This document shows positions 26,238-49,260 of a stretch of DNA of 64,000 nucleotides, in pieces; positions within the stretch are counted from its first letter, which is position 1; each line of letters begins with the position of its first letter. This DNA is from Protoeuglena noctilucae (Eukaryota). The notes beneath the pieces are model-generated. The model did not search any database and was not told where the DNA came from. It was given only the letters and a program-made list of their open reading frames with translations. The DNA lies in NCBI GenBank assembly GCA_958009085.1, contig OY253675.1:124001-188000 (forward strand), written 5' to 3'. A program made the translations under genes and the position numbers.

Positions 26238-27669
26238 CCCCGGCGTCGCCTCCAAGGCGGCGCTGGACCTGGCCTCCTACACGGTGCGGGAGGCGGCGAG
26301 GACGACGTGTGACAGGGCGGCGGTCCGGCAGCGGCTGGAGCGCAAGGCGGAGGGCTGGGCGGCGGCGCTGGGGGAGGGGCACGGCGTCACGGGAGAGGGA
26401 TTGAGGCGCACGCTGGTGGCGCTCAACGGGCTGCCGCTGTCGGACGCCCTGCACGAGCGGCTGTTGCTGACGCTGGCAGACGGGTGGGCCACGCAGGACA
26501 GGATGTAGGTACTGGGCGGAGAGGGACGAGTGCCCGCTGCTAACGAGGCAGGGGAGGCATGCATGGGCAAGAACAGTGCGGCCCACGCGTTCTGGGAGTG
26601 CTCGCGCGCGCGGGAGGTGTGGCGCGTGGCGAGGGGCATCGTGGCGTGGGCAGGGGGGGGGGCACAGGGGGCGCCCCTCCGCCCGTCGGCCCTCTTCCTG
26701 CTGCGCGTGCCGGACGGCGCGCGGTTGGGGCCGCTCACGTGGGCGGTCGTGGCGGGGGCGACCGTGCAGGTCATCTGGCGCAGGCGGCAGCAGCTGACGA
26801 AGGACGCGGGGGCGGACGCGTCCCCGGCACAGCTGTTCGCGCAGATGACGCGCATCATGGCCGAGGAGCTCGTCGCTCTGGCGGCGTACCGGGGCGGGCG
26901 GGCCCTCGCGCGCTGCACGCACCCAGACGACGCCCTTCTACACCCAAGGGACCCGGCGAGGTCCACCTTCACCTACACAGCGCCCACATGGGCAGCCGTC
27001 GAACCGCTACTGCCCTGAGGGGCCCTCATCATTCGCAGCACGCCATCACCCCACCAACATTTGGGCGGGGACGGCGGCGTCGGACGGGTGGCCTTCGGGC
27101 TGCTCGATCCGGCGTCGGCGCCCGGTCCTCTGGGGCGACCACGGCCACACTGAGCATTAATGGGAGAGCCCGACTGCCGGCTTAAACAAGCTCCCCTGCA
27201 CCCAGGATGATATGGGCTGGCGCACCGCGCGGCGACGCCATCGGCGACCCCCTTGGCTGCCTGGCCGAAGCCGGAGCCTGAGAGGGCCACGGGTGGGGGA
27301 TCCACGCGATGCGCGCGCAGCCGCAGGGGCGAGGGGTGCGCTGTGGTGGCAGGGGTGGGCGTCTCACATGGAGGGTGCCGGCGCGCGGGACACCAAGGGC
27401 TTCTTGGCTTACACACTCCATCCTTCACATGCTTCGCAGGTTCTCGGACGCACACTCGACAGCTTTACCCACACGCCTTCTCCTCACCTGCCCCGCAGCC
27501 GGCCATGCCACCCCACCCCAATCCGCATTACTCCCACATCCACCCGACCGCATTGCTCCCACCAGGTCCCTAAGCCAGCCCACTGCCTTCCTATGACGCA
27601 CACTTTCCAACCCCCACATCTCACTGCACACGCACCCTGCCCCAGTAGCACTTCTCTGCATGCCACGCC
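26238..27669 (+). mobile_element. 5'-truncated LINE family B, part left of the PLV insertion
   Basis: ORF remnant ..RLERKAEGW..DRM*VLG..HAFWEC..IWRRRQ to 27018, homologous to the LINE-A C-terminus. Continues at 46948. Confidence 0.8.
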
Positions 27670-28230
27670 AGTTAGTGAAAGCCGACGCCTGGAACGGCAC
27701 GCCGCTGCCGCCGCCGCTCCGGCGGTTGGATTCTTTACTAAGGATTACATATACAGTAATGGCACGCGCACGCCGATATTACTGTAAAGTCAACGGTCAA
27801 CGGTCCGGCGGTCAACGAGCCTTCACGCAGCCATCAGCTTACGCTAAAAAATCTAACAATCGCGCGGCCGTAGGCCATCGGGCTTCGCCCTACGCCTTGA
27901 ACGACGCCTGGAAAAGCCCCTACCCGAGGTACGGAGGCTCCCAGCGCCAGAACACTGCACGCCCGAGTCGCTTGATTCTCCGCGCGATCTTCCGCTCGAC
28001 ATCCTTCAGGTCGTATAGATTGCGGTACATCGCCGTGAAGCCCTCTACTGAGGCCTCTGCGTCGGCCTCTGCCTCGCGCAGCATTTTGCTAATATCGTCT
28101 CTGGTGGACTGGAGCTGGTCGCAGAGAGCGACCCACTTCACCCACTCGCGCTCGTAGCCTGTGTTATCAATCGTCGTCATCACCATACCCCTACGTCGGC
28201 AACCCTTTACGGCGTTTTTCTCCCCCTCCT
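27670..28230 (+). repeat. Left terminal inverted repeat (~560 bp)
   Basis: Reverse complement of 46386-46947. One substitution (V/A codon) and one homopolymer indel were seen. Confidence 0.95.
27920..28186 (-). CDS. TIR-encoded 88-aa coiled-coil hypothetical protein
   Basis: ATG-started ORF preceded by the AAAACGCCGTAAAG motif; duplicated in the right TIR. Confidence 0.7.
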   Translation of the reverse strand: MVMTTIDNTGYEREWVKWVALCDQLQSTRDDISKMLREAEADAEASVEGFTAMYRNLYDLKDVERKIARRIKRLGRAVFWRWEPPYLG

Positions 28231-28386
28231 GTACCGTTCCTTCGAACGCTGGATCGTGGCTTCGCGGTACTTCTGGTTCTCAGCATACCGTTGCTTCGCT
28301 TTCGCGAGAATCAGCTCTCGATTGGCTTGATAATAGCGTTTATGCTGCGGTAGATAAGAAGACTTCTTAGGTTCTTCTTCGCTCAT
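28207..28386 (-). CDS. 59-aa basic helical protein (YYQANRELIL type)
   Basis: Translated by hand: MSEEEPKKSSYLPQHKRYYQANRELILAKAKQRY..KTP*. Homologues at 51748-51930 and 29444-29641. Confidence 0.75.
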   Translation of the reverse strand: MSEEEPKKSSYLPQHKRYYQANRELILAKAKQRYAENQKYREATIQRSKERYRRGRKTP

Positions 28387-28407
28387 ATAAAAAAAGATAT
28401 AAAAATG

Positions 28408-28650
28408 TTAGGACGGTCTGGATCCACGCGAACCGTTATGCCAGGGTAGCATTCTACCTGGCCTTCGGATGTCGTTCATCATGTCGTCGAATGACGTGTA
28501 GGTTACGTCCGACGTTTTAGCGGGTGTGCCTCCGAACCAATACTCAAACGTAGCTTTACTCTTGTCCCACTTCGCTTGCGTGTGGTTGATAAAGATCCCG
28601 AGCTCTTTATCGTTGGCGTCATAAAGCATCACGTATCGCGTCTTACCCAT
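28408..28650 (-). CDS. Viral hypothetical protein (80 aa)
   Basis: Conserved at protein level with 51952-52200. Confidence 0.8.
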   Translation of the reverse strand: MGKTRYVMLYDANDKELGIFINHTQAKWDKSKATFEYWFGGTPAKTSDVTYTSFDDMMNDIRRPGRMLPWHNGSRGSRPS

Positions 28651-28747
28651 GATAAAGAATGGAGAAAAGCTTTATGGTGTTTTCTCCTACCCTGGGCCTT
28701 CGGCCTGGGCATTCAGCCACGTCGTTAAAAAATATCGCGTGATAAAT

Positions 28748-29005
28748 ATGCAATACAAAATTAAGATATATCTTAAAGACGGATCTGCTGTATTGATGGA
28801 TAAGATATTCGACTTAGATATACCCAAAGACCTTGGAATTACATTGGAAGATGACCTCGCGTGGGACAAAGCAATGTGGCCAGTCTCTGAATTCTTCGTA
28901 AAACTCAGCGAAGTATTTGGTAAAAAAGGTGGAAATATTAATTACGAATTGATTAGCATAGGTAGTCCTCCTTGTAATCATCATCATCATCATCATGGTA
29001 TCTAG
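28748..29005 (+). CDS. Viral hypothetical protein
   Basis: MQYKIKIYLKDGS..DLAWDKAMWPVS, conserved with 52275-52440. Confidence 0.75.
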   Translation: MQYKIKIYLKDGSAVLMDKIFDLDIPKDLGITLEDDLAWDKAMWPVSEFFVKLSEVFGKKGGNINYELISIGSPPCNHHHHHHGI

Positions 29006-29432
29006 GTTGGATTACTTGCCTCCCTTCGCGCACTGACTTGCAATATTTGCATTTTTTAAAGTGATTTCGTTCGAAGTCTTGATCTTGCTCATGCATAACA
29101 TCCAAATCGTACGGTGTGCAAAAGTAAATACCTGGGAATGCGGCACGAGCCTTTTCGATAGCCATCATTTCGTTTCCATGGGTGATGATCACCCAGTCTA
29201 GCTTCTTATCTTTGTGCCAAATCACGGCATTATCGTAGGCAAACAACTCTACGACATCCTCGCGTGGTTTCGTGCACTCGATAAATTTCATTGTCAACGG
29301 ACACCATGCTTTCTGCACGACGGCCATACTGGCAACGAGTTCGCACATATCAGGACATAGAGGGGTCATGTCAGCGAGAAGCTGGTAAACTTGGTCCTTG
29401 GACACTGCCATGTTTTTCTCCATAATATACAT
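28953..29432 (-). CDS. Viral hypothetical protein, WCP family
   Basis: Shares TPLC..CE..WCP with 51098-51727, and WCPL..DWV..CxxC with 45938-46324. Start codon uncertain. Confidence 0.75.
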   Translation of the reverse strand: MYIMEKNMAVSKDQVYQLLADMTPLCPDMCELVASMAVVQKAWCPLTMKFIECTKPREDVVELFAYDNAVIWHKDKKLDWVIITHGNEMMAIEKARAAFPGIYFCTPYDLDVMHEQDQDFERNHFKKCKYCKSVREGRQVIQPRYHDDDDDDYKEDYLC

Positions 29433-29443
29433 ACATTATTTCT

Positions 29444-29641
29444 TTACGGCGTTTTTCTCCCCTTCCGCCTCGCCAAAGCGCGAGCCCGAAACTCAGGGTC
29501 TTCCGCGTACTTGCGTCTCATGTACTCCAATTTTTTCTCCCGATTCTTTTGATACGCTTCTCTTTTCTGCTGGAGTATACGTTCCTTGTTAGCTTCATAG
29601 TAGATCTTAAAGCGGTTAGCCGTAGCCGCAGAGTCTTCCAT
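29444..29641 (-). CDS. 65-aa basic helical protein
   Basis: YYEANKERILQQKREAYQKNREK repeats, typical of small viral DNA-binding proteins. Confidence 0.7.
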   Translation of the reverse strand: MEDSAATANRFKIYYEANKERILQQKREAYQKNREKKLEYMRRKYAEDPEFRARALARRKGRKTP

Positions 29642-29661
29642 ATAATGATGGCGAAAAGTCT

Positions 29662-30591
29662 TTACGCTTCCACCACGAGGTCTCTCTTGACAGTCTTTCG
29701 TCGTTTCGTTGTCGTATTAATGAGCTCGTAACTGCTTGGTAGTACGCGTACAATTTCAAAGACAGCTTTTGACACGTGTTCTGCACGCGACTTTTTGAGT
29801 CTCGGGTTTGCATCTATTACACGCACTCGGTCTCCCACATTAAAGAGCGCCCTGGCATTTGTCTCTCGTTTGAAATTTTGGTTTAGTTTGTTTTGGAGGT
29901 ATGTGATTTGATGGTAGTCCGTGGGACTTATCTCGTGGTCATCGACAAGCTTCATGACGTCATCCGGTTTCATTCCCGTTTGCTTCGAAACAGTGTCGTT
30001 ATGCGCATGGGCCACTGCTGCCAATTTTTGCCAATACGTCATGTCGTCTGGTAGTCTCGTGATACCTTCCCGTAATGTTCGAATCATTCGTTCGGCTGTC
30101 GGAGCATGCTCTACGAACTGTTGCTGAACCCCTTGCTCCAGAAGCCATGTCACGGTGTCCTTGGAATCTCCCATCGTCCACGCGGAGTCGCGGTCACACA
30201 CGATGGTCATCGGCTTCGGGCGTTGACGAGGCAACATGCTTAAGAGTCCCTTTTTTACAGACTCCTTCGTTTTGTTTTTCAGGGGATACAGGTAGACATA
30301 TTTAGAAAACACGTCGACCAAAACGAGGATATACTTCACGTCTTTCGTCTGATTCGGTTTCTCAACGTGCATGATGTCGAGCATAGCAACAGCCCAAGGG
30401 GACGTGGTCATGAAGTGACCCCCTTTCGGTTTCTCGTCTCGGGGCTTCATGACCATCCTGCGAACATTCTCTTGCCCGAGAAGGAATTCCTTTACTTGCG
30501 ACTTGCTGTATCCTTTCGAACGAACTTTGGCATACAACTTATCGATAGAAGTGTATCCCTGCTTAAAAAATGTATTGAACAACTCCTCCAT
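29662..30591 (-). CDS. Retroviral-like (rve, DDE) integrase, Polinton type
   Basis: LDIM, YILVLVDVFSKY, PLKNK, CDRD, AERMIRTL, HNDT..GMKP, FNVGDRVRV. Intact frame, no obvious chromodomain. Confidence 0.93.
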   Translation of the reverse strand: MEELFNTFFKQGYTSIDKLYAKVRSKGYSKSQVKEFLLGQENVRRMVMKPRDEKPKGGHFMTTSPWAVAMLDIMHVEKPNQTKDVKYILVLVDVFSKYVYLYPLKNKTKESVKKGLLSMLPRQRPKPMTIVCDRDSAWTMGDSKDTVTWLLEQGVQQQFVEHAPTAERMIRTLREGITRLPDDMTYWQKLAAVAHAHNDTVSKQTGMKPDDVMKLVDDHEISPTDYHQITYLQNKLNQNFKRETNARALFNVGDRVRVIDANPRLKKSRAEHVSKAVFEIVRVLPSSYELINTTTKRRKTVKRDLVVEA

Positions 30592-30667
30592 AGATGAGCT
30601 TTAAAAAACCTCAACCAAAAGGGGATACGCCCCTTGAGGACTCTTGTCCAACCGGCCTTGGCCACCC

Positions 30668-32008
30668 CTAACAAGGGGGTTTTAGGGGGCCACGCCCCCT
30701 ATTGCATGACAGGCAAGCAATCCCACAGTTTTCTTTCGTGTGACCGAGGTCGTCATCTGTGCGGTCCAGAGTCCACGTGCCCTCCTGATAGAAGTCAGCG
30801 CCGCAGTGCCTGCACCGGAATTTGTCAGCCTTCAAGAGAGCCCAGATATCTTCGGTCGTGATTGTGGTCTCTTGGTCGCGTGTCTTGTCTTGTCGCGTGT
30901 ACCCCAGAACCTTGTCCCGAATGTATGCCTTCAGGTTCAGGAGAACGGAGCTGATACCTTGGACAAGATAGACCTTATCGAAGTCTCTTGCTCGCGTGAT
31001 GGCCATGTAGAGTTCCTCGCATCCGACGAACGTAGTGCTCACACCATGGACATATAAGTTTCCGCTCGTGCGAGACCCTTGACAGCTGTGGATCGTTACC
31101 ATGTTGGACGATTCAAAGTTTTTATGAAATTCATCTACTTTAATTTTCTGGATCACGCCGTCTTGGCCTTGCAGTTCCACATAAGGGGTTTCACCCCTTT
31201 GAAACCCCGAACAATGGGGGCCTGAGGGGGCTCCGCCCCCCACCATCAAGTACTCTGCGTTGCGAATGAATTTCCCAGAAGACCTCCCAGAACTCGGTCG
31301 ATAGGTCCAAGTGTCTGGAGCAGCTATGTTCGTCCCCAACGATTGAATGCACTTGAACGGACATAGATGTAGTCCATCACGTGCGAGTGCCTCGTCCTCG
31401 GAAAGCAAGCGCTTTTGAGACAGGAACCATTCGATGCAAGCTCTCTTGTCCTTGCGTTCCACAAGCATTTCCCGTAGCTCTTTGAGTAATGGCTTCTGTG
31501 ATTCCGGTAGGGTTTTATTTTCATGCAGGTATACCCTATTTTTGAAAACGCTCTGCATGAGCATCCCGACTGCATCTCGGGAATATCGGGTGTCCTGGAC
31601 CGGCTTCAGCTGGTCGATATCGCCGGTCATGATTAGGGTGTAGTCCCGGTTCACCGCCTCCGTGGCCATTTCTCTTAATGCCGAGGTACAGAACATAAAC
31701 GCTTCCTCGAGGATAACCATATTTGCGTCAGGAGGTACGTTGCGAGTAGCCTTGCGGTTGATGACCGGGAGTTCCCACCACTTGTGCGATGTTGTGAAGT
31801 GAATGTCCAGGGGGGTTGTGTCCCCTCCAAAGTACCCCTGACAGTCCAGCTTGTTCTTATTGTTTGGACAGACGACCACGATACGCTTCTCTTGACAGTA
31901 CTTTTTGACGTAATCGACCCAGAGGCGTGTTTTTCCGGAACCGGCGTAGTGAGCTTGAATGCTCAGTCTGTTGTGTTGCTGAAGAATCTCATGGATTTGT
32001 CCCGTCAT
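30668..32008 (-). CDS. Superfamily 1 (RecD/Pif1-like) helicase with C-terminal HNH-type Zn-finger nuclease
   Basis: AGSGKT, ILEEAFM, GDIDQLKP, TIHSCQG, YMAITRAR; then CRHC..TLDRTDDDLGHTKENC..CLSCN. Confidence 0.88.
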   Translation of the reverse strand: MTGQIHEILQQHNRLSIQAHYAGSGKTRLWVDYVKKYCQEKRIVVVCPNNKNKLDCQGYFGGDTTPLDIHFTTSHKWWELPVINRKATRNVPPDANMVILEEAFMFCTSALREMATEAVNRDYTLIMTGDIDQLKPVQDTRYSRDAVGMLMQSVFKNRVYLHENKTLPESQKPLLKELREMLVERKDKRACIEWFLSQKRLLSEDEALARDGLHLCPFKCIQSLGTNIAAPDTWTYRPSSGRSSGKFIRNAEYLMVGGGAPSGPHCSGFQRGETPYVELQGQDGVIQKIKVDEFHKNFESSNMVTIHSCQGSRTSGNLYVHGVSTTFVGCEELYMAITRARDFDKVYLVQGISSVLLNLKAYIRDKVLGYTRQDKTRDQETTITTEDIWALLKADKFRCRHCGADFYQEGTWTLDRTDDDLGHTKENCGIACLSCNRGRGPLKPPC

Positions 32009-32032
32009 GAACTCCGTGTCATACTCTTGTTC

Positions 32033-34411
32033 CTAAGTGAACTCGTGGGTGATCCATTTGTTCTTCTCCTTGAATTCGGGAAGATTCGGGGGACTTATGT
32101 CCATCGGCTTTGCTTTGACTCTTCCTAACTCTGGTAGCTTGTATGAACCCAGTTTCCCGTCATACTTGATGTCTGGCCGTTCGCGGAAAAACACCGCATC
32201 TGTCTTAATGGCTACTGGTTTGTATATCAGATTGTGGATGAACGTAGCGACGTTCGCAGCTGCGAGTTCTTGAAGCACTGCCCAAACACTGTGTTTCCAT
32301 CCGTTGAGGCAAACCCTACTGTCTTCGTCATACACTATATTCAGGTCAGGGTCTCCGGCCAGTTTTAATTTCGGGTTATCCTCGATTACCTTGTATGCGC
32401 TCATGGCGTCCTTGAACAACACACCACGCTGCGCCATCGTCCTCGAACGTCCAGCCATACCTATCGCCATGTTAACGATCTTCTTGACGTCATTGACCGT
32501 CAGCGTGGTTTCCTTGATAGCATCGCCATACAGCCAATCGATGACCTCGGCGACTCCCTGAATGCGCGCTGTATACGCCGTTTTGAGTTCTCCGATGATT
32601 CTGATGGCAGGACCGTGGGCCCATGCGGCGTCGTCCCCCCTGTCGAATAATTTAGCCATTCTCTTCAGTACGCTACCGAGACATAGCGATAGTTCCTTTC
32701 GGTAATACACTTGCTCCGAGAACCAGAATAACTGAGTCTTATTGAGTTTCACAACGTACCAAGCAAGGTCATCCGCGTCTTCTATGCGCATGTCGACGCT
32801 ATAGAAGTGGTCACTCGAGCATGGCACTGGGATTTCCATTCCCTCCATCGACTTCAAGATGTATGTGTAGTGTTTTGTGGCGTCGCATTCCCAGAGGTTC
32901 TCGTCGATTCCATCACGGAGGGACTCCGAACATCGTACGATACCAAACTTTCGAAGGCGGTCGAAAGTATCAAACACGTCCTGATTCACCTCGCATCTCG
33001 TCGTAGTACAGTGTAGTCTCTTCATGAGCTTGTCCTGAGCGTTTTTGTAGTCAATTTCATGGTCGAGACTGTGTCTGGACTCGGTAATTTCACCACAGTC
33101 TACCATGGACCGCACTACTATTTTTTTGTTGTCGACATGGTGAAACATAAACTGATTCACTTGACCATTCTGTAGTCTGAGGTCATAAGGTACAGCAATA
33201 GTAGCGACATTTTTGAGGGCGCTCATTACGTCGTGAGTGTAATAGGCGCCAGGTTCAACGTTGTTCAGTTCCTGAAGACTTTCAACATGTTTCCAAGGAT
33301 TTACATGTTTTATCTTCGAAGGAGCCCATTCGATTTTCTCAGGTGCTTTTGCTCTTGGGAAGTCTATTTCAGGTACCAGGAAGTCCTCGATAGTCTTCGC
33401 GTCTATGCTCTCTGTCGCTCGTTTCGTGTGCCACACGGGACATATGTGACCATCGTGAACGATGAAAGTTAAGCGTCTGATTTCCTTGTTCTCCCTCTCT
33501 GCTTTCAGTTTGAGAACGACGTGACCAAAGATATTGAAAACCACCACATTGAACCTCTTGGCAAGTAGTTGACACCCCTCTAATAGTTTCACGGGTCCAT
33601 CAGGGAAATTCTCGTTTACCCACTTCAGATGACAGGTGATGTTTTGCTTAACCTTCTTCGAATTCGCATTCTCAATCGCACGTAGGATCTGATTTTGAAC
33701 CGAAGACTTAAAACAGCTTCCTTCCTTGAGGTCGAATACGTTGTCGGAGTCCTTGAACCCAAGGGGGTTCACGCGATTGATGTAAATGGACTTGTCCCTG
33801 GATACCGCTTGTTCGAACCATAGTTTATAATTCCGTTCATGTGGATTCACTTTATAGACAGAAACAACGTCAGTGACTACAGTGCGTGTTGGCGAGATGG
33901 TCTGCAACGTTTCAAAGAGGTCTGGGTTTGTCTTCTCGATGAGATTTTTAAACCTCTTAGCCGATTCCGTCCTGGGGTCTTTAAACTTGAATCTTTCTAT
34001 CTTGGGCGGCGGCTCCTTCACAAACATGCGATAAGGCGTATCGTTGTCCCGAATAAACCACGCATTTTCACCGCCGAGACCACGGCGAATCGTATTATTT
34101 TTCAGGTATGCCTCGAACTTTTCAAAGACATTTTTACCTCGCTTATTCTTAGACTCGACGTGCTTCTGCATCTTTCGGATAGTCGCTCGTAGGTCATCGT
34201 ATGTCTTGACTTCTTTGCCAGCTACCTTATCGATTACCATAAATTCCGCGTCAAGCTCCTCGGCAACCCATACATTATATCCGGTGTCATAAATAGTTCG
34301 TTTGCGCTGCTTCTCGTTCTTGCGTTGCCGACGTGTGTCTTTTTGTTGAGCAATTTTCTCAGCTCGCGCGACTTGCTGGCGGATCGTTCGTGGGGCATGG
34401 GCTTTGGGCAT
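32033..34411 (-). CDS. Derived family-B (protein-primed-like) DNA polymerase, in frame with the helicase
   Basis: Motif A-like CDATKHYT, motif B-like KKIVNMAIG, motif C-like AIKTDAV. Exonuclease motifs not recognised. Confidence 0.7.
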   Translation of the reverse strand: MPKAHAPRTIRQQVARAEKIAQQKDTRRQRKNEKQRKRTIYDTGYNVWVAEELDAEFMVIDKVAGKEVKTYDDLRATIRKMQKHVESKNKRGKNVFEKFEAYLKNNTIRRGLGGENAWFIRDNDTPYRMFVKEPPPKIERFKFKDPRTESAKRFKNLIEKTNPDLFETLQTISPTRTVVTDVVSVYKVNPHERNYKLWFEQAVSRDKSIYINRVNPLGFKDSDNVFDLKEGSCFKSSVQNQILRAIENANSKKVKQNITCHLKWVNENFPDGPVKLLEGCQLLAKRFNVVVFNIFGHVVLKLKAERENKEIRRLTFIVHDGHICPVWHTKRATESIDAKTIEDFLVPEIDFPRAKAPEKIEWAPSKIKHVNPWKHVESLQELNNVEPGAYYTHDVMSALKNVATIAVPYDLRLQNGQVNQFMFHHVDNKKIVVRSMVDCGEITESRHSLDHEIDYKNAQDKLMKRLHCTTTRCEVNQDVFDTFDRLRKFGIVRCSESLRDGIDENLWECDATKHYTYILKSMEGMEIPVPCSSDHFYSVDMRIEDADDLAWYVVKLNKTQLFWFSEQVYYRKELSLCLGSVLKRMAKLFDRGDDAAWAHGPAIRIIGELKTAYTARIQGVAEVIDWLYGDAIKETTLTVNDVKKIVNMAIGMAGRSRTMAQRGVLFKDAMSAYKVIEDNPKLKLAGDPDLNIVYDEDSRVCLNGWKHSVWAVLQELAAANVATFIHNLIYKPVAIKTDAVFFRERPDIKYDGKLGSYKLPELGRVKAKPMDISPPNLPEFKEKNKWITHEFT

Positions 34412-39042: not shown

Positions 39043-40319
39043 ATGTCGACGTCCGTCATGAGCACCGCGCCCCTGGCCTTCAAAGCCCGCAAGCTGATGG
39101 ACAACCTTGCTCGCAAGACCGTCCGTATTTACCCCGACACCTCTGGTACCAAGACTGGTGGCCAGCAGGTCGTCTTTACTCTTCCCGTGGACCACATCCT
39201 GGACCTCAAGACGCTCAAGGTTTGGTAAAATTTGACGAATGCAGACGTAACAGTAGATAATAATTACATTGGCCCCATGTCCAGTTATGCATACATAAAA
39301 AATATCTCTATTTCCGTGAATGGTCGTACGGTGACTCAGGCCGATAACTGGGGTGCCATTGAGGCTTATCTTGACCAGATGCGTCGAGGTGAAATCGAAC
39401 TTTCCTCCGATGGAGCAAGTTATGCTCCAGATATTAGCATAGGTACCTCACAGTACGTTGCGGTAAATGGATTCCCAGACACGTGGCTCTCTGGAGAGTT
39501 CATGAGGTACATGCCGACAAGTATGTTTAAAGACACAAAGATTACGCTGACTCTTGCTGACCCGATTTCTGTTGCTTTTACTGCGACTAATGGTATAGAA
39601 CCTGGTTATGCTGTTATGCCTACCCCTGCAAAAATAAAGCTAGTGCTGGTACCGTAAGTTACACGGGTCAGTGGATATCTTGTGATGCTCTGATGTTTAG
39701 CGACTCAAGTTACACAGAGGAAATCTTGGATGCCATTGAGCACGACGCGAATGGTCTGTCTATTCCATACTCCAACATCATTATCCAGCCTTCCGACACT
39801 GTCACCGGTGGGACGCTAACTTTCTCCAAGAGGTACACGTCTGATTCCGTTAACAAGCTTCTTGCGGTGATGAAAGCTGCGGATGGTTCTAACCCACTTT
39901 CCAACTCCGGACCTGGGAGTGTTACTGCGTTGCAGACATCCACTTAGTATTTTAAGATTGGTGGATACCGTCTCAATGACCAGGACATCAACGGTTTTGA
40001 GGCATTCACGACCTTTAAGAACACATTCGGCTGTAAGCGTCCTACGAACATGTTGGGTCAGTGGGATTCTCCTGCTTTCTGTATGTCCACGGACTTGTGT
40101 CTGCCTGGACTCGTCTCTGGATATAACACGTACCGCGCTGCTGCAGACATCAGTCTGTTTGCAAGTGGGCTGACAGTACCATCTGGTGGCGGAATCGTGT
40201 ATGTAGCCGCGTTCGTGACCTCCAGGTGTGTCGTCGACAAGAATACGGGTCTGAACCAAATCAATCAGGGACTCCGTCCCTATAACCCTGGAGGGGCCTT
40301 CGGCCCCATAGTTTGTTAG
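39043..40319 (+). pseudogene. Major capsid protein (PLV double jelly-roll type), disrupted
   Basis: One ~425-codon gene rebuilt across TAA 39226, a frameshift at ~39635 and TAG 39945. VVFTLP..LDLKTL, IKNISISVNG, LSIPY, YFKIGG, LVSGYNT resemble PLV MCPs. Confidence 0.78.
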
Positions 40320-40933: not shown

Positions 40934-41407
40934 ATGGATATAGACGCCAGTGCGCTGAGTCTCGAATGGGAGACTAAGCTTAAGTCGTCAGCACCTCAGA
41001 ATATCCAAGCTTTCTTGACGGAAGCAGAAAAGCTTTACAGAGCATCTACCGACCCATCCCGTGGGACTGCTCTGGCCCTGTGCATTCAGACCGCCCTTGA
41101 TGACGAAGATGGAATCGCTCACCCGGCACACGAAGACGCGATGAAAGTCGTCCAAGTTGCAAAAACCAAAATCGATTCCTTTTATGACCACATGGGCGTG
41201 ATTAAGGTGCTCGCCAAGCTCGTTCGAAAGTCTCTTCACCGCGATAGATGGCTCGACGTTTTGCAGCTTGCCATAAAGAAGCTCGTAGATTCCAACCCCG
41301 GTCTGACCAAGACCGTCTTGGACGCTCTGAAAAATATAGTGCTCACAGACCTCGAGAGCATCGCGTTATCTGCCCTAAAACGAGCCGGTACGTTTCTATG
41401 CCATTAA
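40934..41407 (+). CDS. Viral hypothetical helical protein (157 aa)
   Basis: ATG preceded by TTTTCTAAAG. Confidence 0.7.
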   Translation: MDIDASALSLEWETKLKSSAPQNIQAFLTEAEKLYRASTDPSRGTALALCIQTALDDEDGIAHPAHEDAMKVVQVAKTKIDSFYDHMGVIKVLAKLVRKSLHRDRWLDVLQLAIKKLVDSNPGLTKTVLDALKNIVLTDLESIALSALKRAGTFLCH

Positions 41408-41540
41408 GACTCACGGAACAAGAGTGACCGTTGAAATTATCCGCGGAGTAGTCATGATGATTCTGTTTAACGTTCACCCGTTAGGAGCATTGCATATATA
41501 GGGGGCCCTTTTTGCCGCTTCTTTTTTTAAAAGCTCATGT

Positions 41541-41837
41541 ATGGTGACACTCACGAGCGATGGCGATGTCGTTGCAAACCTCAAGGTCGTGAACGGTAAG
41601 CTGGTGGACACTGACACAGGGGGCAACGCCCCCTCAGACCCCCATGGCGGCGCCCTCGTTGTAGATGTTCTCGATGTGCTTGACCTCGTTATTGCAGAGC
41701 GTGAGCTCAATGGAGTCACGGAACCACCTGTGTTGAGTCTTGCAAAAGGGCACCGCTCTGTAGACTTTAAATATGTTCCCGGGATCAACGCTGAGAAACT
41801 TTTGAAGGTCGTGGAGTTGCTTGACAAACTCGCATAA
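41541..41837 (+). CDS. Viral hypothetical protein (98 aa)
   Basis: ATG preceded by TTTTTTAAAAG. Confidence 0.65.
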   Translation: MVTLTSDGDVVANLKVVNGKLVDTDTGGNAPSDPHGGALVVDVLDVLDLVIAERELNGVTEPPVLSLAKGHRSVDFKYVPGINAEKLLKVVELLDKLA

Positions 41838-41957
41838 GGGCTCCGAGGACGTACGTCCAACTGGCCTTCGGCCCCTTGTTTTTTTTATTTAATTAAATTG
41901 TTTATTGTTAATTTTATTGTTTTTTTAATTTAATTGTTTTTATTTATTTAATTTAAT

Positions 41958-42242
41958 TTGAATTGGACCCGTGATATCGTCGTTCATGCTAATTTTTGCA
42001 ATCGGAGTTATTCTTCTGTCCCAGGCGGCGGTGTGAATCGTGGAAACGTTCTTATAGAACTACCTATAAGCGACCAACAGGACGGACTCGTGTACAATGG
42101 AAGAGAGTCCGATGCTCACATTATCATCGATGAGGAAATTAACGGTCTTTTGGCACCACAGATATATATCACAGACGGAGACGGAAACATAATCACAGCA
42201 AAACTCCCTTGGACCCTGACGCTGAATGTTAGTACCTATTAG
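41958..42242 (+). pseudogene. C-terminal fragment of putative minor capsid (penton) protein
   Basis: NVLIELPI..LVY..IYITDGDG..PWTLTL matches the single jelly-roll penton C-terminal pattern. No ATG; abuts an A/T tract. Confidence 0.55.
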
Positions 42243-42367
42243 GGAAGGGGTTGCACCCCTTTGAAACCCCGCAGGCCTTCGGCCCCAATTTGGTTGAGGC
42301 GGCTGAAAGCCGTAGGGGCTACGCCCCCGTAGGCCAATCGCACTGCTTCTTTTTTAAAGGTCATAAT

Positions 42368-43135
42368 ATGCCACGTATAGCACCAAACATAGTAAGACCT
42401 GAAGCAGGAAGGGATGAGACTGAACGCGAACTTAACAGCCATGACAAAGCGGGATTACACCGACTTTATATCAAATTGAGAGACGAATATCATCACACAT
42501 TTGTACATTTAGAGTCAGCACAGTCTGCCACAACGGTCCTTACTGATTTAGCGGATGCGCGGCTTATATCGATGGGAGCTGAAGAAATACATAACGTAAA
42601 AGATAGATTTATGATACGAGTATCTCAACTAATACAGAGTGAGTATAATTACAACAACGGTCGAAAAGGAGCTCATAAAAGAATGTACCGGGACCCATGG
42701 ACGGGTGATGAACGAGAAGCACTTTACTGCATGGCTATTGACATAACTTCGAATAAGTTTGATAGAAGAGTACACACCCGAATCAATGCTGCTGAAGAAG
42801 CAGCATCAAACCGACTTCCTGACCCAGAACACGAAATCCCCGAACCAGACCGCAGACCGGAAGCGAGCGAGACTCAAGTACATGAGCCGGTAGACCCTAT
42901 ACCAAACGTTAGAGACCCAGCTCTCGAACCAATAGCCGAAGGCCAATCTGGGGCCTCGGGGCTTCGCTTGGTCTCAGATTCTTCCGCACAAACAGCAAGC
43001 CAACAAGCGAGGGTGATTGCTGTGAACGCATTGGCTGGAAACATTATGTTCGTAAACAATCCGCTTGCACAAATCCCAGCACTTCTGAGAAGCAGGCAGC
43101 GAATTCGATACGAAAATTTACTTGGTAACTATTAA
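42368..43135 (+). CDS. Viral hypothetical protein with C-terminal QIPALL..YENLLG motif (A)
   Basis: ATG at 42368 after the duplicated upstream cassette. Confidence 0.75.
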   Translation: MPRIAPNIVRPEAGRDETERELNSHDKAGLHRLYIKLRDEYHHTFVHLESAQSATTVLTDLADARLISMGAEEIHNVKDRFMIRVSQLIQSEYNYNNGRKGAHKRMYRDPWTGDEREALYCMAIDITSNKFDRRVHTRINAAEEAASNRLPDPEHEIPEPDRRPEASETQVHEPVDPIPNVRDPALEPIAEGQSGASGLRLVSDSSAQTASQQARVIAVNALAGNIMFVNNPLAQIPALLRSRQRIRYENLLGNY

Positions 43136-43317
43136 GGAAGGGGTAAGGGACGTACTTCCCGACGGCCTACGGCCACCCCTTTGAAACCCCCCAGAAGGGG
43201 CAGCACTACGTGCATCGCGGCTTCGCCGCTGCCCCATTTTTGGTTGAGGCGGCTGAAAGCCGTAGGGGCTACGCCCCCGTAGGCCAATCGCACTGCTTCA
43301 TTTTTAAAGGTCATCAT

Positions 43318-44127
43318 ATGTTAGGATACACAGTAGAAACGTCCCTTACTACGTCCGACGTAAAAGTGATACACCACTTTGTAAAAAACCTTGATTTACC
43401 TCTGGATCAGCCAGGAAAGTGGCTGATCATAGCATTGGATATCCGCAAAATGTTTTCTATTAACTTGGACCAGTTTGAATCTATTATGTTGAATCGCGAG
43501 ATTCAGCGACTGGGTCAACTTTTAGTATCTTCCAGAAATTCCAAAAACCCAAAAAAAATCGTAATTGATGTGATTTATTCGAATCCATTAAAGCCAGATG
43601 AAACGAGCTTGCAATCTAGGGTCATGACGCATTACTATGCGCTTGATCCAGACGCAAAGTTCTTTAGCGCTGATGTTGAGAGAGCCATTACGACATTCGA
43701 TGACGCAAATATTGATATCCATACCAATCCGCTATTCCAACCTCAGCCAGGAGATAATCCAGGTGATACGGCAAGTGAGTACATTGACAATTTGCTCCGA
43801 CAAGGCGAAACTTCGAAACCTGATGGAAGCCAACCGGATGAACCAAGTCCTGAACAACTCGCGGGGGGCGTTGCCCCCCAACCCCCAACAGGGGGCACAG
43901 GGCAAAGTGGCGATGCGGCTACAGGAGGCCCCGAAGGCCTCCCAACGACAGGTACAGGTACAGGGGGCCAGACGAATGGGGAGCTCGGGGGGGCGGCGCC
44001 CGGAGTTCAAGGGGGCTCTGCCCCTTTATACAATATTAATTTGCCGCCACCTGGTATGACTCAAATCCCCGCTCTTTTGATGAGTCGCCGTAAGATTCAT
44101 TATGAAAACCTGTTGGGGTTCTACTAA
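43318..44127 (+). CDS. Viral hypothetical protein with C-terminal QIPALL..YENLLG motif (B)
   Basis: ATG at 43318 after the duplicated upstream cassette. Confidence 0.75.
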   Translation: MLGYTVETSLTTSDVKVIHHFVKNLDLPLDQPGKWLIIALDIRKMFSINLDQFESIMLNREIQRLGQLLVSSRNSKNPKKIVIDVIYSNPLKPDETSLQSRVMTHYYALDPDAKFFSADVERAITTFDDANIDIHTNPLFQPQPGDNPGDTASEYIDNLLRQGETSKPDGSQPDEPSPEQLAGGVAPQPPTGGTGQSGDAATGGPEGLPTTGTGTGGQTNGELGGAAPGVQGGSAPLYNINLPPPGMTQIPALLMSRRKIHYENLLGFY

Positions 44128-44230
44128 GAAAGGGCGCTGCCCTTTCTAAACCTGACGGTATGGAGGTGGCCGAATTCCCCTTTTTATCGCCTTGATGTGA
44201 TTACGATTTTTGTTTTGTAGCATCTTGTAT

Positions 44231-44953
44231 ATGCACAAGATAACGGGAGACTTGGCCATTAAAAGAATCCCTGATGATGTCGAAGACGCTCGTAAAGCTC
44301 CCGAAGGACTGCCAGCCATTGCTAAGGACAACCAGCAGTTATTCGGGTACTTTGTGGCCGGCATTGGATGCGGTAAGACGACTTTTCTGCTACGATTGCT
44401 CGAGAAGTATTTAAAAACACACTCGTTCGATTATGTCTTTTGGTGTAGTCCTACGAGTACGCGCGATAAGAAAGTACGATCTGTCCTCGGAAAGGCGCCC
44501 GCGGGGGTTCAAATAGTCTACGATACCGATTTTCCATTCACCGAAATCGAACAGCTCATCGATGAGAAGCTGGAGGAATACGACCTCACGCTGAAGTACA
44601 TCCCCGTGTATAGGAAATATCTCCGTTTGTATAAGTCAGTAAAGCACGACTCCGAAGAAGAAGAAATCCTCGAACTCTTCAGCGATGACGAGCTTGAGCT
44701 TCTTAATCACTTCGAATTCGAACCTCCGACCAAGTAGAGGAGCATGGTTAATATTTTCGCGCTGTGGAGATGCGCGAATCCCAAAATCAAAAAGGCCATG
44801 GCTGAGACGATGTGTGGGCAGTACCTGACACCGGATAAATTCCTTGAACTATGGAACACCGCAACCAAGGATGATATTCATGACGCTTTTGTGGGAATCC
44901 TTCAGTCACCAGAAGGCGAACGATTCCGAAAAAACCTCAACGAAAGCTTTTGA
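44231..44953 (+). pseudogene. A32/FtsK-like packaging ATPase, disrupted
   Basis: Walker A AGIGCGKTT, FDYVFWCSPT, C-terminal ERFRKNL. In-frame TAG at 44735 where the Walker B/RH segment should be. Confidence 0.78.
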
Positions 44954-44973
44954 AAAAAGCTTGCAAAATGCCC

Positions 44974-45399
44974 TTAAAAGTAGTCTACGAGCTTCCTCGT
45001 GTTCCCAGTACGACGAGACTCCTGAATCGCCTCGCGCACCTCGGTCTCGCGCATCGTGCGTTCTTGGGGTGGAGCTTCTTGGACATATTTCGAGGATACC
45101 GTCTTGATATTGTAAAGACGTTCCAGCAAAGCTTTCTCTTTCAGCTCTAGCTCCTTTTGCTTGACTTCGAGTTCCAGGTTCTGGAGGTCTTTTTCTTTCT
45201 GCTTCACTGACTTCAGTACAGTCTCATGCTGAAGGCGCTCCTCCTTGCGTTGGGTTTGAACTTCACGGGCCTTTTTTAGGTTCTCCAATCGCTTAGAAAT
45301 CGCCACAGGGGGCGCAGGAGCCGTGGTTTCTTGCTCTTGTCCGGGGGTTGGGGTGGAAAGTTCAGGTTCAGGCTCCGAGACAGGTTTCTTGAGGACCAT
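44974..45399 (-). CDS. Coiled-coil viral protein (RLENLKKARE)
   Basis: 141-aa ATG-started ORF, K/E-rich. Confidence 0.7.
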   Translation of the reverse strand: MVLKKPVSEPEPELSTPTPGQEQETTAPAPPVAISKRLENLKKAREVQTQRKEERLQHETVLKSVKQKEKDLQNLELEVKQKELELKEKALLERLYNIKTVSSKYVQEAPPQERTMRETEVREAIQESRRTGNTRKLVDYF

Positions 45400-45423
45400 T
45401 TATATACATGCAAACAAAATAAT

Positions 45424-45840
45424 TCAGATGAGAACGCGGAGAATCACGGCAAAAGCGGCGTGCGTGGCAGAATACGACGCGCCTGTCATATCTGTAATCG
45501 TGAACGTCATGTTCTTGCTTGTGAACGGATATACGGGGATAGGTGCTGTGGGTTGAGAGGCAGCGCCGGAAATAACGTTAGACATATACCCGGTAAGAGG
45601 GTCGAAACTATGGTACAGCTGTAAATCATTTGTGGTAAGCAGGGCGTCGTTTGGCATATTGCAGGTGTTTTCAACCATAAGTCCAAACGGCTTGCCGCTC
45701 ACGGATTCCAGGTGAGGGATGTCGAGATGCACTACTGTACTACTCGAGTTTGCAGGGAATCGAACGATGATACGGAGGGTATGCGTGTGCCTGTCTACTG
45801 TAGGCGTGGGAGCTATCGGCTGTTGCTGAATTGCTGACAT
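45424..45840 (-). CDS. Small beta-rich viral protein, possibly a minor structural jelly-roll
   Basis: Alternating beta-strand pattern, MTFTITDMTG near the C-terminus, upstream TTTTCTAAAG. Confidence 0.6.
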   Translation of the reverse strand: MSAIQQQPIAPTPTVDRHTHTLRIIVRFPANSSSTVVHLDIPHLESVSGKPFGLMVENTCNMPNDALLTTNDLQLYHSFDPLTGYMSNVISGAASQPTAPIPVYPFTSKNMTFTITDMTGASYSATHAAFAVILRVLI

Positions 45841-45937
45841 ATATAACTTTAGAAAAGAAGCTGCGCGATTGGCCTAACAAACTAAGGGGCCGAAGGCCCC
45901 AGTGGGAGAGAAAAACGCTGTAAAGGATTGATGAACT

Positions 45938-46324
45938 ATGTTCATGGAGAAAAACATGACAGTCGTCGAAGCCTGGTGCCCTCTCATGAAGGAGTTCGTT
46001 TTGGTCCCTGCGACCGATACCGACAAGTTCGTGAAATTCAGGGACGATAAGTTATACCCCGTGGACTGGGTTCTATTGACCCGGGGTGATTACGATAAGG
46101 CGAGGGAAATCGCAAATAAGGAGCTACCTGACGTCTATATTTGTAGCGATTACCACATGAGTTGGGAGCACGACGCTGACCAGGCGATAGACCCGGGGCA
46201 CCACAGGCGAGCTGGGTGCGGAATGTGCCAAGCTGCTTACGCCGGTAAGAAGCTTCTCCAGCCCATATTCCCTCCCACTCGTGAGGAGCTTGAGGCGGCG
46301 GGAATTGAGGAGGGAGACATGTGA
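45938..46324 (+). CDS. Viral hypothetical protein, WCP family paralogue
   Basis: MEKNM..AWCPL..DWV..CGMC, similar to 28953-29432. Confidence 0.75.
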   Translation: MFMEKNMTVVEAWCPLMKEFVLVPATDTDKFVKFRDDKLYPVDWVLLTRGDYDKAREIANKELPDVYICSDYHMSWEHDADQAIDPGHHRRAGCGMCQAAYAGKKLLQPIFPPTREELEAAGIEEGDM

Positions 46325-46385
46325 AAGGGGGCTTTTTCCGTATTTTTTAGCGAGGGCTTGTTTACAGGCATCGCTTTTCTTCAAT

Positions 46386-46947
46386 AGGAGGGGGGAGAAA
46401 AACGCCGTAAAGGGTTGCCGACGTAGGGGTATGGTGATGACGACGATTGATAACACAGGCTACGAGCGCGAGTGGGTGAAGTGGGTCGCTCTCTGCGACC
46501 AGCTCCAGTCCACCAGAGACGATATTAGCAAAATGCTGCGCGAGGCAGAGGCCGACGCAGAGGCCTCAGTAGAGGGCTTCACGGCGATGTACCGCAATCT
46601 ATACGACCTGAAGGATGCCGAGCGGAAGATCGCGCGGAGAATCAAGCGACTCGGGCGTGCAGTGTTCTGGCGCTGGGAGCCTCCGTACCTCGGGTAGGGG
46701 CTTTTCCAGGCGTCGTTCAAGGCGTAGGGCGAAGCCCGATGGCCTACGGCCGCGCGATTGTTAGATTTTTTAGCGTAAGCTGATGGCTGCGTGAAGGCTC
46801 GTTGACCGCCGGACCGTTGACCGTTGACTTTACAGTAATATCGGCGTGCGCGTGCCATTACTGTATATGTAATCCTTAGTAAAGAATCCAACCGCCGGAG
46901 CGGCGGCGGCAGCGGCGTGCCGTTCCAGGCGTCGGCTTTCACTAACT
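46386..46947 (-). repeat. Right terminal inverted repeat
   Basis: Reverse complement of 27670-28230. Confidence 0.95.
46431..46697 (+). CDS. TIR-encoded 88-aa protein, second copy
   Basis: Identical to 27920-28186 except one V>A change. Confidence 0.7.
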   Translation: MVMTTIDNTGYEREWVKWVALCDQLQSTRDDISKMLREAEADAEASVEGFTAMYRNLYDLKDAERKIARRIKRLGRAVFWRWEPPYLG

Positions 46948-49260
46948 CGCCTCCCCGTCCATGCCCGCAGCTAACAGGTAGATGCCTCTTCCAACCAGAC
47001 CACACACGCCCTCTAACTCTCTGCACGCACCCTCGTCACTCCTCTCACGATCTCGCCGCTCAGCACCACTCTTGCCCACTCACCGCGCATCACCACTGAC
47101 ATACACACGTTCACCTCTCAATCCCCTCTTTTCTTCCACATGGACCCCCACATAAACCACCTTCCTGCTCAGCACGCATCATCTCCCACCCCTCCTCCTG
47201 CCAGCCCCACGCCACACCCTTCTCACGGACCACGCCCCCCCACACACCTCACCTCACACGCCCAACCAGACTCGCCCATTCCGCAAGCCCTCCTGCCCCA
47301 CGCACTCCCCCCCTAGCTGCACAGGTAAGGCTCAGCACCCTCTCACAGCTAATGCCCAGGTGAGCACACGCACCCCTCAGCGCATCACTCCCCACGCACC
47401 AAGCACCACACACTGATCCAGCACAGCATCTGCACCTCCTGACCTCCCCCAATCACGCACAGACCTCCTCGCATCCTCCCACGACCACCCTCTTTGCCAG
47501 CCGCAGGTCTGGACCCACACCAGCACTCATCCTCCGTCACGCACACCGTCACCTCTTCCTGACCGCAGACCTGGACGGACGCGCACACGCACCCTTGCCT
47601 CACCCCCAGCCCTCTGCAGCCATGCCTCGCAGGCCCTTGGTGTCCCACAGCCGCCAGCGCTCACCCGTGGGGCGTCTGCTCCGTCGCCCTCGCGGCGCGC
47701 CCCGCACACCCACGGTACTGCGCGTGCCGCGTGGCCTCCCCGCCCGTGGTCCTTCAGGGGCTCTGGCGCTGGTCGGGCGGGTCCGCGCGGGGGTCGCCAG
47801 CGCGTCGCCTGTGCTCCAGCCAACGTGAGAGACCAGCCCCGCCGGGGGGGGCTGGCAAAGGGTGCGACGGGGGACAAACGTCGGGGCAGAGCTGGGAGCA
47901 ACGGGTCGAGGGGCTCAGGCAGTGGCAGAGAGACGTGGCGCCCGTGGGGTGGAACGCCGGGGATGTCGTGGGAACACCCGGCAGTGGCGCAGAACGGACC
48001 AGGCGCCACAGGATCAGAGAGCGGTGTGGCTGCGACGAGGCGGGGAGAGTGGGAGCGCAAGCGGGGCCGGAGGGCCTGTCTTTGGGAGTCTGCTGAGGAG
48101 GCCCTGCAGGAGAGCAACGGAAGGCGAGGGGTGCTGGCGCCCGGCATGGTGGCGCTGGCGGGGGCGACCCCTCGCACGACACACAGCAGGGCAGCGGGCT
48201 TTTGGGGGCGGGCGCGATGGCAGCGCGACAAGAGCGAGCGGCGGCGGCGAGAGTAACACAAGGGGCATCGAATGGTGTGGGTGGGCATGGGCTGGGCGAC
48301 ACAGGGGTGTCGGGTGTTTTGGGGGGCGACGGGGGCGCGAGGCAGGCCACGGTTATCAGGGCGCGCGGGTGCGCGGAGCGGGAGGTGGGCCAAGGTCGTC
48401 AGCGTTAAAGGGCCAGGGTCGCCACAGCGTCGGTTGAAGGTCGTCAGCGCATTCGGCCAAGGTCGTCAGCGCGATAGGCCAAGGTCGTCAAAACGATGGG
48501 CCAAGGTCGTCAGCGTGATGGGCAAAGGTCATCTGGGCGTGTGGGGGCGAGGAGTTGAGGGACGGGCCCAGGCCGACGGACGCGGGAGAGGACGGGCCAA
48601 GGGCCAAGGTCGACGTGCGGGAGCGAGGAGCGGGGTCGCGTCGTGGGTCTCTGGGCACACGGCCGAGTGGGTCGTGCCGGCGCACGCACCCGGAGCGGGG
48701 CGGTCTGGGGCGGTCCACATGAGAGGCGGCCGGTCCTCCGGGGCGCAGCGCGGGCGACGCGGGGCGCCCAGGGGCAACGCTGCGCCCCCCAAGGAACGCC
48801 GTCTGCGTTCGGACCGCCCCCACCGCCCTCGCGTCCGGGCCAGCGTGGCCGGGTGGGCGAGCCAGCCGGGCCGCCTGAGGAGGATGGGAGGAGGGTAGGG
48901 AGCGGGGGATGTCATGATTGGGCGCACATAAGCTACACAGATCGTCATTAGCCTCGGCCTCACCTTTTGTAATAGACGCCCGGGGGTCTCCACGGAGGGC
49001 CCCCGCGGCTGCATCGTCCCACTCTGGGGTGGCGATTGTGCCTTCGGGCGCAGCGAGGGGGCTAGGGGTGCCAGAGCCCGGGGCGGGCGACCCCTGTGCC
49101 TTGGGGTGGGGCAACCTAGCGGGGGCGGGCCCCGTGCCATATGCACTGCACGATGGAAACCCCGGGGTGTCAGCTGCCCCGGGGGACAGCACTTCTGCCG
49201 CCAGGCGTGGCTCTGAGAGTCATAGCACCCCTCGACTGTTGAATCGCTCATCATCATCAT
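46948..49260 (+). mobile_element. LINE family B 3' region right of the PLV, ending in (CAT)n
   Basis: Inverted match to 16735-19044; ends CTCATCATCATCAT. Confidence 0.8.

Follow-up and report, generated by a model that had tools for sequence, protein, structure and literature searches.

Is the 19-kb insertion in a repeat-rich part of the Protoeuglena noctilucae genome a complete virus, and how was it joined to its host DNA? The stretch analysed here (the window) comprises 64,000 nucleotides of contig OY253675.1 (assembly GCA_958009085.1, positions 124,001 to 188,000), and all coordinates refer to it. A first-pass annotation had described, at 27666-46951, a complete endogenous Polinton-like virus (PLV) with a 4-bp target-site duplication, and had taken the duplication as the mark of a separate integrase lineage. 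We find that the element is an endogenous PLV of a known kind, with a Tlr1-like helicase and its own rve integrase. As the best overall explanation we consider it highly probable that this Tlr1-type PLV was inserted by its integrase with a 4-bp stagger, that it is defective in its coding capacity, and that its family went on spreading.

Element limits and target-site duplication

The element proper occupies 27670-46947 (19,278 bp). It begins with AGTTAGTG at 27670 and finishes with CACTAACT at 46947, giving the termini AGTTAG...CTAACT; the host sequence on the left closes with ...GCATGCCACGCC, and that on the right opens with CGCCTCCCCG. The AG..CT ends and the long, near-identical inverted repeats described previously were confirmed, as the two repeats of 557 bp differ by one mismatch, at 27999. 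The length of 560 bp given for them was too large, the repeat finder having taken in 3 bases of the flank. Similarly, the span 27666-46951 holds for the element together with both copies of CGCC and not for the element itself. GC content is 0.487 within the element and 0.672 in the remaining window.

An inverted copy of both flanks is located 8.6 kb upstream of the element, and there the target site is uninterrupted (Table 1). By BLAST and the repeat finder, positions 16734-19045 align to 49258-46948 at 99.4% and positions 19042-19825 to 27669-26886 at 99.7%, and the two alignments share exactly four bases, 19042-19045. Over the 300 bp next to the site, flanks and empty copy agree at 299/300 positions for one flank and 295/300 for the other. 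Read as its reverse complement, 19036-19053 gives GCATGCCACGCCTCCCCG; the inverted empty site with its single CGCC is therefore present as annotated, one base away from the coordinates proposed for it (~19037-19054). Since a shift of the boundary by one base in either direction abolishes the duplication, CGCC is the only possible parse. Flanks, empty copy and boundary shift thus agree with the annotation that exactly 4 bp (CGCC) were duplicated on insertion.

Read-derived contigs of four public runs were compared with positions 27300-47299. Three were DNA runs (X1, X3 and X7; one organism-labelled, two marine metagenomes, two studies in all) and one was an RNA run (X9). All three DNA runs contained a contig in which 13 variant letters and a single CGCC connect 27652 with 46948, which corresponds to the empty form; the 13 letters represent a third flank variant. 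The open reading frame (ORF) across the empty site falls into a cluster of seven aligned members, one of which is an unrelated fragment while the other six run uninterrupted through the site. For the filled form, a conceptual ORF over the left junction (27212-27784) is recorded from 3 contigs. The empty copy in the window is a paralogue in a repeat-rich region and not a proven allele, and the target is a multi-copy or polymorphic host sequence; this does not weaken the conclusion on the duplication.

The region itself, with its rearranged repeats, a reverse-transcriptase element and two truncated PLV remnants, might invite the explanation that host end-joining or recombination captured the element at a microhomology, or that the empty site arose by excision. 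However, the element has complete, symmetrical termini, its target bases stand in two copies and are not shared once, and the six readable uninterrupted site variants fit a pre-insertion state better than repeated precise excision. We therefore give this explanation next to no credence. The preferred course of events is an integrase-mediated insertion, in which the integrase would have linked a linear double-stranded genome, its inverted ends 557 bp long (5'-AG...CT-3'), to the host DNA. The two target strands would have been cut with a stagger of 4 bp, and gap repair would have duplicated CGCC. The target would have been a repeated host sequence in a transposon-rich region, so that uninterrupted paralogues could survive. 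On this account the 4-bp stagger may be a property of the integrase.

Integrase and replication genes

The products of 24 ORFs were scanned against Pfam. Five had a match at E up to 0.01, and three of these exceeded the curated cut-off (rve, AAA_30 and DUF5754). The integrase reported in the first-pass annotation is among them: residues 68-159 of the intact 309-amino-acid (aa) product match rve with E 5e-11 and 43.2 bits (cut-off 32.6), and D72, D133 and E167, located by motif, form a candidate catalytic triad. Its nearest solved chains are foamy-virus integrase cores, with weak matches (E 0.003-0.005). With the integrase as query, no relative was obtained from IMG/VR or the JGI metagenomes.

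The adjacent replication gene has the layout of a Tlr1-like helicase, with an N-terminal part of unknown function, a polymerase-B-like domain, a superfamily 1 (SF1) helicase and an HNH/endonuclease VII region, and is split by an in-frame TAG at 32033-32035. The 446-aa ORF (30668-32008) encodes the SF1 helicase (AAA_30, E 5e-10; PHROG Dda-like helicase, 4.9e-8) and, at its C-terminus, the HNH/endonuclease VII part (PHROG endonuclease VII, 1.8e-10). For the 792-aa ORF (32033-34411), an Atlas lead points to DNA_pol_B_2 and protein-primed polymerase B clusters (0.95, 205 of 256 features); in Atlas's own model (pLDDT 0.54), residues 449-786 align to a polymerase B cluster (TM 0.67 by target). Thus, of the PolB-helicase gene annotated earlier, the helicase is significant and the polymerase part is a lead, and the gene is not continuous. 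All five relatives that were fetched carry the 792-aa and 446-aa parts in one protein and have K where the window has TAG; the longest, P0060 and P0064, comprise 1,114 and 1,155 aa. As a query against IMG/VR, the 792-aa product gave no relative.

Capsid and packaging genes

The gene at 39043-40319 encodes the major capsid protein and is broken in three places (Table 1). An exhaustive profile search with its N-terminal piece yielded 20 proteins at E up to 0.001, some of them intact homologues of 385-388 aa, and both pieces align collinearly with these over the full length; the two stops coincide with conserved F/Y and Y columns of the homologues. Among the intact homologues P0005 comes closest, with 40% identity to the window's N-terminal piece and 32% to its C-terminal one. 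A model of P0005 from an 18-sequence alignment (pLDDT 81.7, pTM 0.84) had its best PDB matches (E 1e-16 to 1e-12) in the capsid proteins of Singapore grouper iridovirus, PBCV-1, EhV, faustovirus, PRD1 and STIV, and its best BFVD match at E 1.4e-29 and TM 0.83. Virophage capsid proteins stood low among the fold matches, at ranks 22 and 31. By this predicted fold the capsid gene family is of the double-jelly-roll type, as had been expected of the 39043-40319 product. Neither the C-terminal piece nor P0005 found a relative in IMG/VR, and the capsid piece had no match in the phage collection. Word-based searches among proteins yielded close relatives at most. One member of the capsid cluster, P0034 (426 aa, named CoA ligase), was grouped there and is unrelated.

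Two ways in which the stops could be read through were rejected. No frame-restoring GT...AG interval occurs around 39220-39256, which speaks against short introns, and TAA, TAG and TGA all terminate other genes of the element, which speaks against an altered genetic code.

The A32-like packaging ATPase is present as a remnant that keeps Walker A and has lost 58 residues including Walker B, a deletion sized against four relatives of 257-280 aa. An intact relative, P0089, matches Pox_A32 with E 4.7e-5 and 23.4 bits (cut-off 22.8). In all four runs, contigs have loose ends at 44735-44737, indicating that deleted and undeleted forms of the gene both exist. Taken together, the ends, the repeats, the integrase, the helicase, the capsid family and the ATPase relative bear out the annotation of an integrated PLV.

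Gene decay and spread of the family

The element is complete from inverted repeat to inverted repeat. In coding terms the description as complete fails, with at least five lesions in three core genes (capsid, ATPase and helicase). Because all three carry disabling lesions, the 19-kb copy is unable to make virions alone. That the element is nonetheless a complete and potentially active PLV, from a lineage with a characteristic 4-bp integrase stagger new for the class, is an explanation we consider unlikely. It would be in keeping with the clean ends, the near-identical repeats, the exact 4-bp duplication and the intact integrase, and contigs of the marine RNA run X9 cover parts of the element, with a low word depth and without implying transcription. 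However, besides the lesions themselves, the same truncated products are recorded on 8 to 10 contigs. The stagger argument is no stronger. The annotation had treated about 6 bp as the rule, whereas 3-5 bp and ~4-6 bp have been published for related rve elements (PMC8547959, PMC12220804), and a single insertion defines no lineage trait. The 4-bp duplication is thus within the published range and not new for the class.

The truncated products in question are the 56-aa capsid N-terminus (8 contigs), the 126-aa capsid piece (10 contigs) and the 792-aa piece of the helicase gene (8 contigs). Their identity across contigs makes it unlikely that the lesions are errors of a single assembly. Different combinations of the capsid lesions were found in the relatives. 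P0027 reads F and Y where the window has TAA and TAG, remains in frame over the frameshift region and ends three codons beyond the TAG site, while P0030 has F at the TAA site and terminates at the window's frameshift. P0032 and P0004 begin just past the TAA site, implying a stop there, and remain in frame over the frameshift region. None of the four distinct versions of the capsid gene on record yields a full-length product, and each lesion is common to at least two versions, in a mosaic pattern.

An intact provirus, with lesions that arose as errors in one assembly, is very improbable. Such an explanation could draw on the short homopolymer at the capsid frameshift (see below) and on the scope of the comparison with read-derived contigs, which extends to the differences listed and not to each stop codon singly. 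Against it, in addition to the recurrence of the exact truncated products, three stop-creating substitutions would be atypical of assembly error, the loose ends within the ATPase gene in four runs indicate that both forms of it exist, and contigs of run X1 match the window at the capsid positions 39429-39453, among those listed.

An internally deleted form was observed in all three DNA runs, where contigs join 32766 to 44319, skipping 11,552 bases, with six other letters at the joint. This deletion extends from within the polymerase-like part to the start of the ATPase gene. The relative P0062 reads over the same joint, first in the antisense of the ATPase region and then in the polymerase-like part. 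The joint in three DNA runs and P0062 together indicate that a deletion derivative without any capsid-module gene exists.

From one mismatch in the 557-bp repeats, about 17 substitutions are expected over the whole element since insertion. Three new stops among these would be surprising, and most lesions therefore probably predate the insertion of the 19-kb copy. Given the recurrence of several lesions in other, distinct copies and the existence of a copy with an internal deletion, the family most likely continued to multiply after loss of the capsid gene, either in the manner of a transposon or with the help of intact relatives. The 19-kb copy bears a fresh insertion signature, namely the 4-bp duplication and the nearly perfect repeats. 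We tentatively suggest, as a possibility that is rather less than probable, that in this marine protist the family, its capsid gene dead, may still be spreading as a transposon driven by its integrase; two classes of virus-type motifs upstream of its genes (see below) would then mean mobilisation or expression on infection by a giant virus.

Several points weigh against the explanation given here. The duplication length was measured at one insertion, and 4 bp may be atypical of the integrase. No bridging contig was found for the right junction among those displayed from the four runs. The capsid frameshift sits at an A5 run (near 39630-39634) and could be a sequencing error. ORF ends of the relatives were taken from protein records alone, and some may be contig ends. 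As an alternative to older lesions in a young insertion, gene conversion between repeats would explain both the near-identical repeats and several lesions. Among the genes, no penton protein was identified in the element's ORFs and no protease was identified, none of the 24 products scanned having a protease match in Pfam. The polymerase-B-like nature of the 792-aa part is a lead from Atlas and the gene architecture: DNA_pol_B_2 gave no Pfam match at E up to 5 for this product or a fused relative, and a PDB sequence search with the product returned nothing.

As a separate observation, the capsid protein P0036 (~41% identical to that of the element) and the helicase P0060 (in the window's 90%-identity cluster) are each recorded with 20,097 bases as the length of their longest contig. 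Should the two lie on one contig, replication and capsid modules have been shuffled between lineages.

Motifs upstream of the genes and GC-rich hairpins

The sequences upstream of 21 ORF starts were examined, and two classes of short motif were seen, which are located in the element (28205-46412) and in remnant C (51746-52231; Table 1). At 11 of the 21, a T-run is followed by (C)TAAA(A)G, ending 8-12 bases ahead of the ATG. This class comprises the integrase, DUF5754, putative fibre, lipase-like and capsid genes and the 148-, 157-, 98-, 255-, 269- and 138-aa ORFs. Six starts are preceded by a GAAAAACGCCGTAAAG-like motif (the two inverted-repeat ORFs, the 80-, 159- and 128-aa ORFs and the 792-aa gene), and four have neither motif. 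Neither class occurs outside PLV-derived DNA, where one has 7 matches (0.04 expected) and the other also 7 (0.33 expected). Six motifs of the first class contain TCTA between T and A runs, TTTTCTAAA(A)G; the late promoter of mavirus and CroV is reported to have this form (PMC8547959). The presence of short conserved motifs just upstream of start codons suggests that viral-type promoters may read the element's genes.

GC-rich hairpin motifs of the form GGGCNWNGCCC within GCCGTAGG...CCGTAGGC occur 13 times, against 1.9 expected, and all lie in PLV-derived DNA. Most follow genes (40337, 42316, 43266) and some are inside ORFs (30687, 41621, 43866); others are at 14915-15326 and 51183-51361. Some copies of the helicase gene have short in-frame GC-rich insertions in differing places, as if small hairpin elements moved within the family.

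Further genes and surroundings

The features of the element and its relatives in the window are listed in Table 1.

Table 1. Positions of the element, its genes, the uninterrupted target site and related remnants in the 64,000-nucleotide window.
Feature	Position	Strand	Remarks
Related remnant B	14673..~15410	plus	terminal repeat of a related element; no genes; internal tandem duplication; begins AGCTAGCTG
Uninterrupted (empty) paralogous target site	19042..19045	minus	GGCG on plus strand; within inverted copy of both flanks, 16734-19825
Left target-site duplication copy	27666..27669		CGCC; basis: single CGCC in empty copy
Left terminal inverted repeat, 557 bp	27670..28226	plus	begins AGTTAGTG; contains 88-aa ORF, 27920-28186, minus strand
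80-aa ORF	28408-28650	minus	
118-aa ORF	28649-29005	plus	
159-aa ORF	28953-29432	minus	paralogue of 128-aa product, E 1e-16
rve-type DDE integrase, 309 aa	29662..30591	minus	intact; Pfam rve
Tlr1-like helicase gene	30668..34411	minus	split by in-frame TAG 32033-32035 into 792-aa and 446-aa ORFs
DUF5754 protein, 107 aa	34509..34832	plus	Pfam E 2.4e-15, over cut-off
Putative fibre protein, 1067 aa	35069..38272	minus	S/T/N/G-rich; intact ORF
Lipase-like protein, 201 aa	38339..38944	plus	GHSLG motif; intact
Major capsid protein gene, broken	39043..40319	plus	TAA 39226-39228; frameshift near 39630-39660; TAG 39945-39947
148-aa ORF	40392-40838	plus	downstream of capsid gene
157-aa ORF	40934-41407	plus	
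98-aa ORF	41541-41837	plus	
96-aa open frame	41952-42242	plus	no ATG
Two paralogous genes, 255 aa and 269 aa	42368..44127	plus	BLASTP E 8e-10
A32-like packaging ATPase remnant	44231..44950	plus	Walker A kept; 58 residues including Walker B deleted; TAG at junction, 44735-44737
141-aa ORF	44974-45399	minus	K/E-rich
138-aa ORF	45424-45840	minus	looks beta-rich; penton candidate
128-aa ORF	45938-46324	plus	paralogue of 159-aa product
Right terminal inverted repeat, 557 bp	46391..46947	minus	finishes CACTAACT
Right target-site duplication copy	46948..46951		CGCC
Related remnant C	50871..52440	plus	left end and three small genes of a related element; truncated at ~52440; begins AGCTAGCTG

A long gene of the kind annotated earlier as a fibre gene is present; the putative fibre role of its 1067-aa product is drawn from composition. 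This protein had no match in Pfam, PHROGs or PDB, and a single 3,334-base contig covers the gene with zero differences in three DNA runs. The lipase described previously was found again as a lipase-like gene, by its GHSLG motif and weak family matches (Lipase_3, E 0.0015, below the cut-off; PHROG esterase/lipase, E 0.004); its PDB sequence search was empty or insignificant. The 148-aa ORF gave a weak Atlas lead to Ulp1-type proteases (0.88, 132/256), its predicted fold has a pLDDT of only 29.6, and a word-based protein search found no relatives beyond its own cluster. Between the 98-aa ORF and the 96-aa frame lies an AT-rich low-complexity stretch (41874-41971) at which the run contigs are cut. 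The 96-aa frame may be a disrupted gene, possibly the penton gene. The products of the two paralogous genes have a common C-terminal IPALL...YENLLG motif, and the genes have the same upstream motif. For the 141-, 138- and 128-aa ORFs no family or structure match was obtained, and the 138-aa product had no match in PDB (profile search) or the phage collection.

Around the element, a 1,434-aa ORF with a reverse-transcriptase domain is found at 21105-25406 on the plus strand (RVT_1, E 1.5e-21). Part of the sequence that follows it, 24897-26237, recurs directly at 49260-50814, and the sequence that received the PLV and its neighbours represent rearranged repeats around the retroelement. For this reason the PLV may lie within or beside another mobile element. 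Three paralogous ankyrin-repeat genes (4530-6086 and 9481-11034, plus strand; 55681-57372, minus strand) share 80-86% DNA identity, one of them also having an F-box, and stand, in inverted orientation, on either side of the repeat-rich block as a whole.

Two remnants of related elements occur in the window. Remnant B is 77% identical to the terminus of the element's repeat, and remnant C is ~80% identical to 28173-28913 and holds homologues of the 80-aa and 118-aa ORFs. They represent a related PLV subfamily (77-80% identity) whose termini, AGCTAGCT, are a perfect 4-base reiteration, compared with AGTTAGTG in the 19-kb element. Genomes copied by protein-primed replication typically have reiterated termini. 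In the whole window the motif GACGCCTGGAA has 11 copies, against 0.06 expected, each lying in the element or in remnants B and C.

Comparison with known systems

The locus offers a clean worked case of a PLV inserted by an integrase: filled and empty sites are found together in the window, and read contigs back the empty form. It adds one further data point that rve integrases of the PLV class do not always produce 6 bp, and it illustrates that near-perfect inverted repeats and a perfect duplication are no proof of a functional provirus. Through the shared lesions and the deletion derivative, the family becomes a candidate for asking whether PLVs live as plain transposons after loss of the capsid gene. 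Current views are not overturned, and thousands of such elements are already known from protist genomes (PMC10120064). A literature search on Polinton, 4-bp target-site duplication and integrase returned none on a PLV, and the terminal-repeat DNA pattern found nothing in IMG/VR or the JGI metagenomes.

Among integrase-related transposons, Ginger1 also produces 4-bp GC-rich duplications (CCGG, CCGT/ACGG) with an integrase-related transposase (Bao, Kapitonov and Jurka 2010, PMC2836005). In contrast to the element, Ginger1 transposons are small (2.6-7 kb), move by cut-and-paste, have TGT... termini and carry no viral genes.

Strict Polintons/Mavericks resemble the element in inverted repeats of several hundred bp, an rve integrase and a virus-like capsid module (PMC8097293, PMC2836005, PMC12220804). 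They differ in having 6-bp duplications, a complete protein-primed polymerase B and an adenain-like protease, whereas the element has a duplication of 4 bp (CGCC) and no DNA_pol_B_2 match at E up to 5. The termini of vertebrate Mavericks, (AGT)2...(ACT)2 (PMC8097293), show a similar reiteration, which reads AGTT-AGTG in the element and AGCT-AGCT in the remnants.

With mavirus and the EMALEs of Cafeteria, the element shares an rve integrase, inverted repeats, TCTA motifs and decay by truncation and pseudogenisation (Hackl et al. 2021, PMC8547959). EMALE target duplications, obtained from filled versus empty sites, are mostly 3-5 bp (range 1-9), and those of mavirus and Maverick/Polinton 5-6 bp (PMC8547959). 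However, EMALEs belong to the virophages and encode a full protein-primed polymerase B together with a protease (PMC8547959), while the replication gene of the element is of the PLV/Tlr1 type. No polymerase B or protease family match was obtained for the element, and in fold ranking its capsid is closer to giant-virus and PLV-type capsid proteins than to that of the virophage (ranks 22 and 31).

The closest agreement is with PLVs. The element combines a double-jelly-roll capsid gene (broken), an A32-like ATPase (partly deleted) and a Tlr1-like helicase (split) in 19,278 bp with repeats and a contrast in GC content. Endogenous PLVs of cryptophytes and chrysophytes are 14-40 kb long and likewise have inverted repeats, GC contrast and, in some clusters, rve; cryptophyte PLV borders are direct repeats of ~4-6 bp, typically 6 bp for rve-bearing clusters (PMC12220804). 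PLVs with a Tlr1-like helicase include Tlr1 of Tetrahymena, the Bigelowiella natans PLVs, TVS1 and metagenomic PLVs (Krupovic, Yutin and Koonin 2016, PMC5499653). According to that account, most PLVs lack a retrovirus-like integrase, which the element has, and the element's helicase gene differs in being split by a stop. Their helicase, of 1,000-1,400 aa, consists of an N-terminal part of unknown function, a protein-primed polymerase-B-like domain, an SF1 helicase and a C-terminal HNH (PMC5499653), and it is in this layout of the replication protein, together with the double-jelly-roll capsid gene and the A32-like ATPase, that the element and these PLVs are alike.

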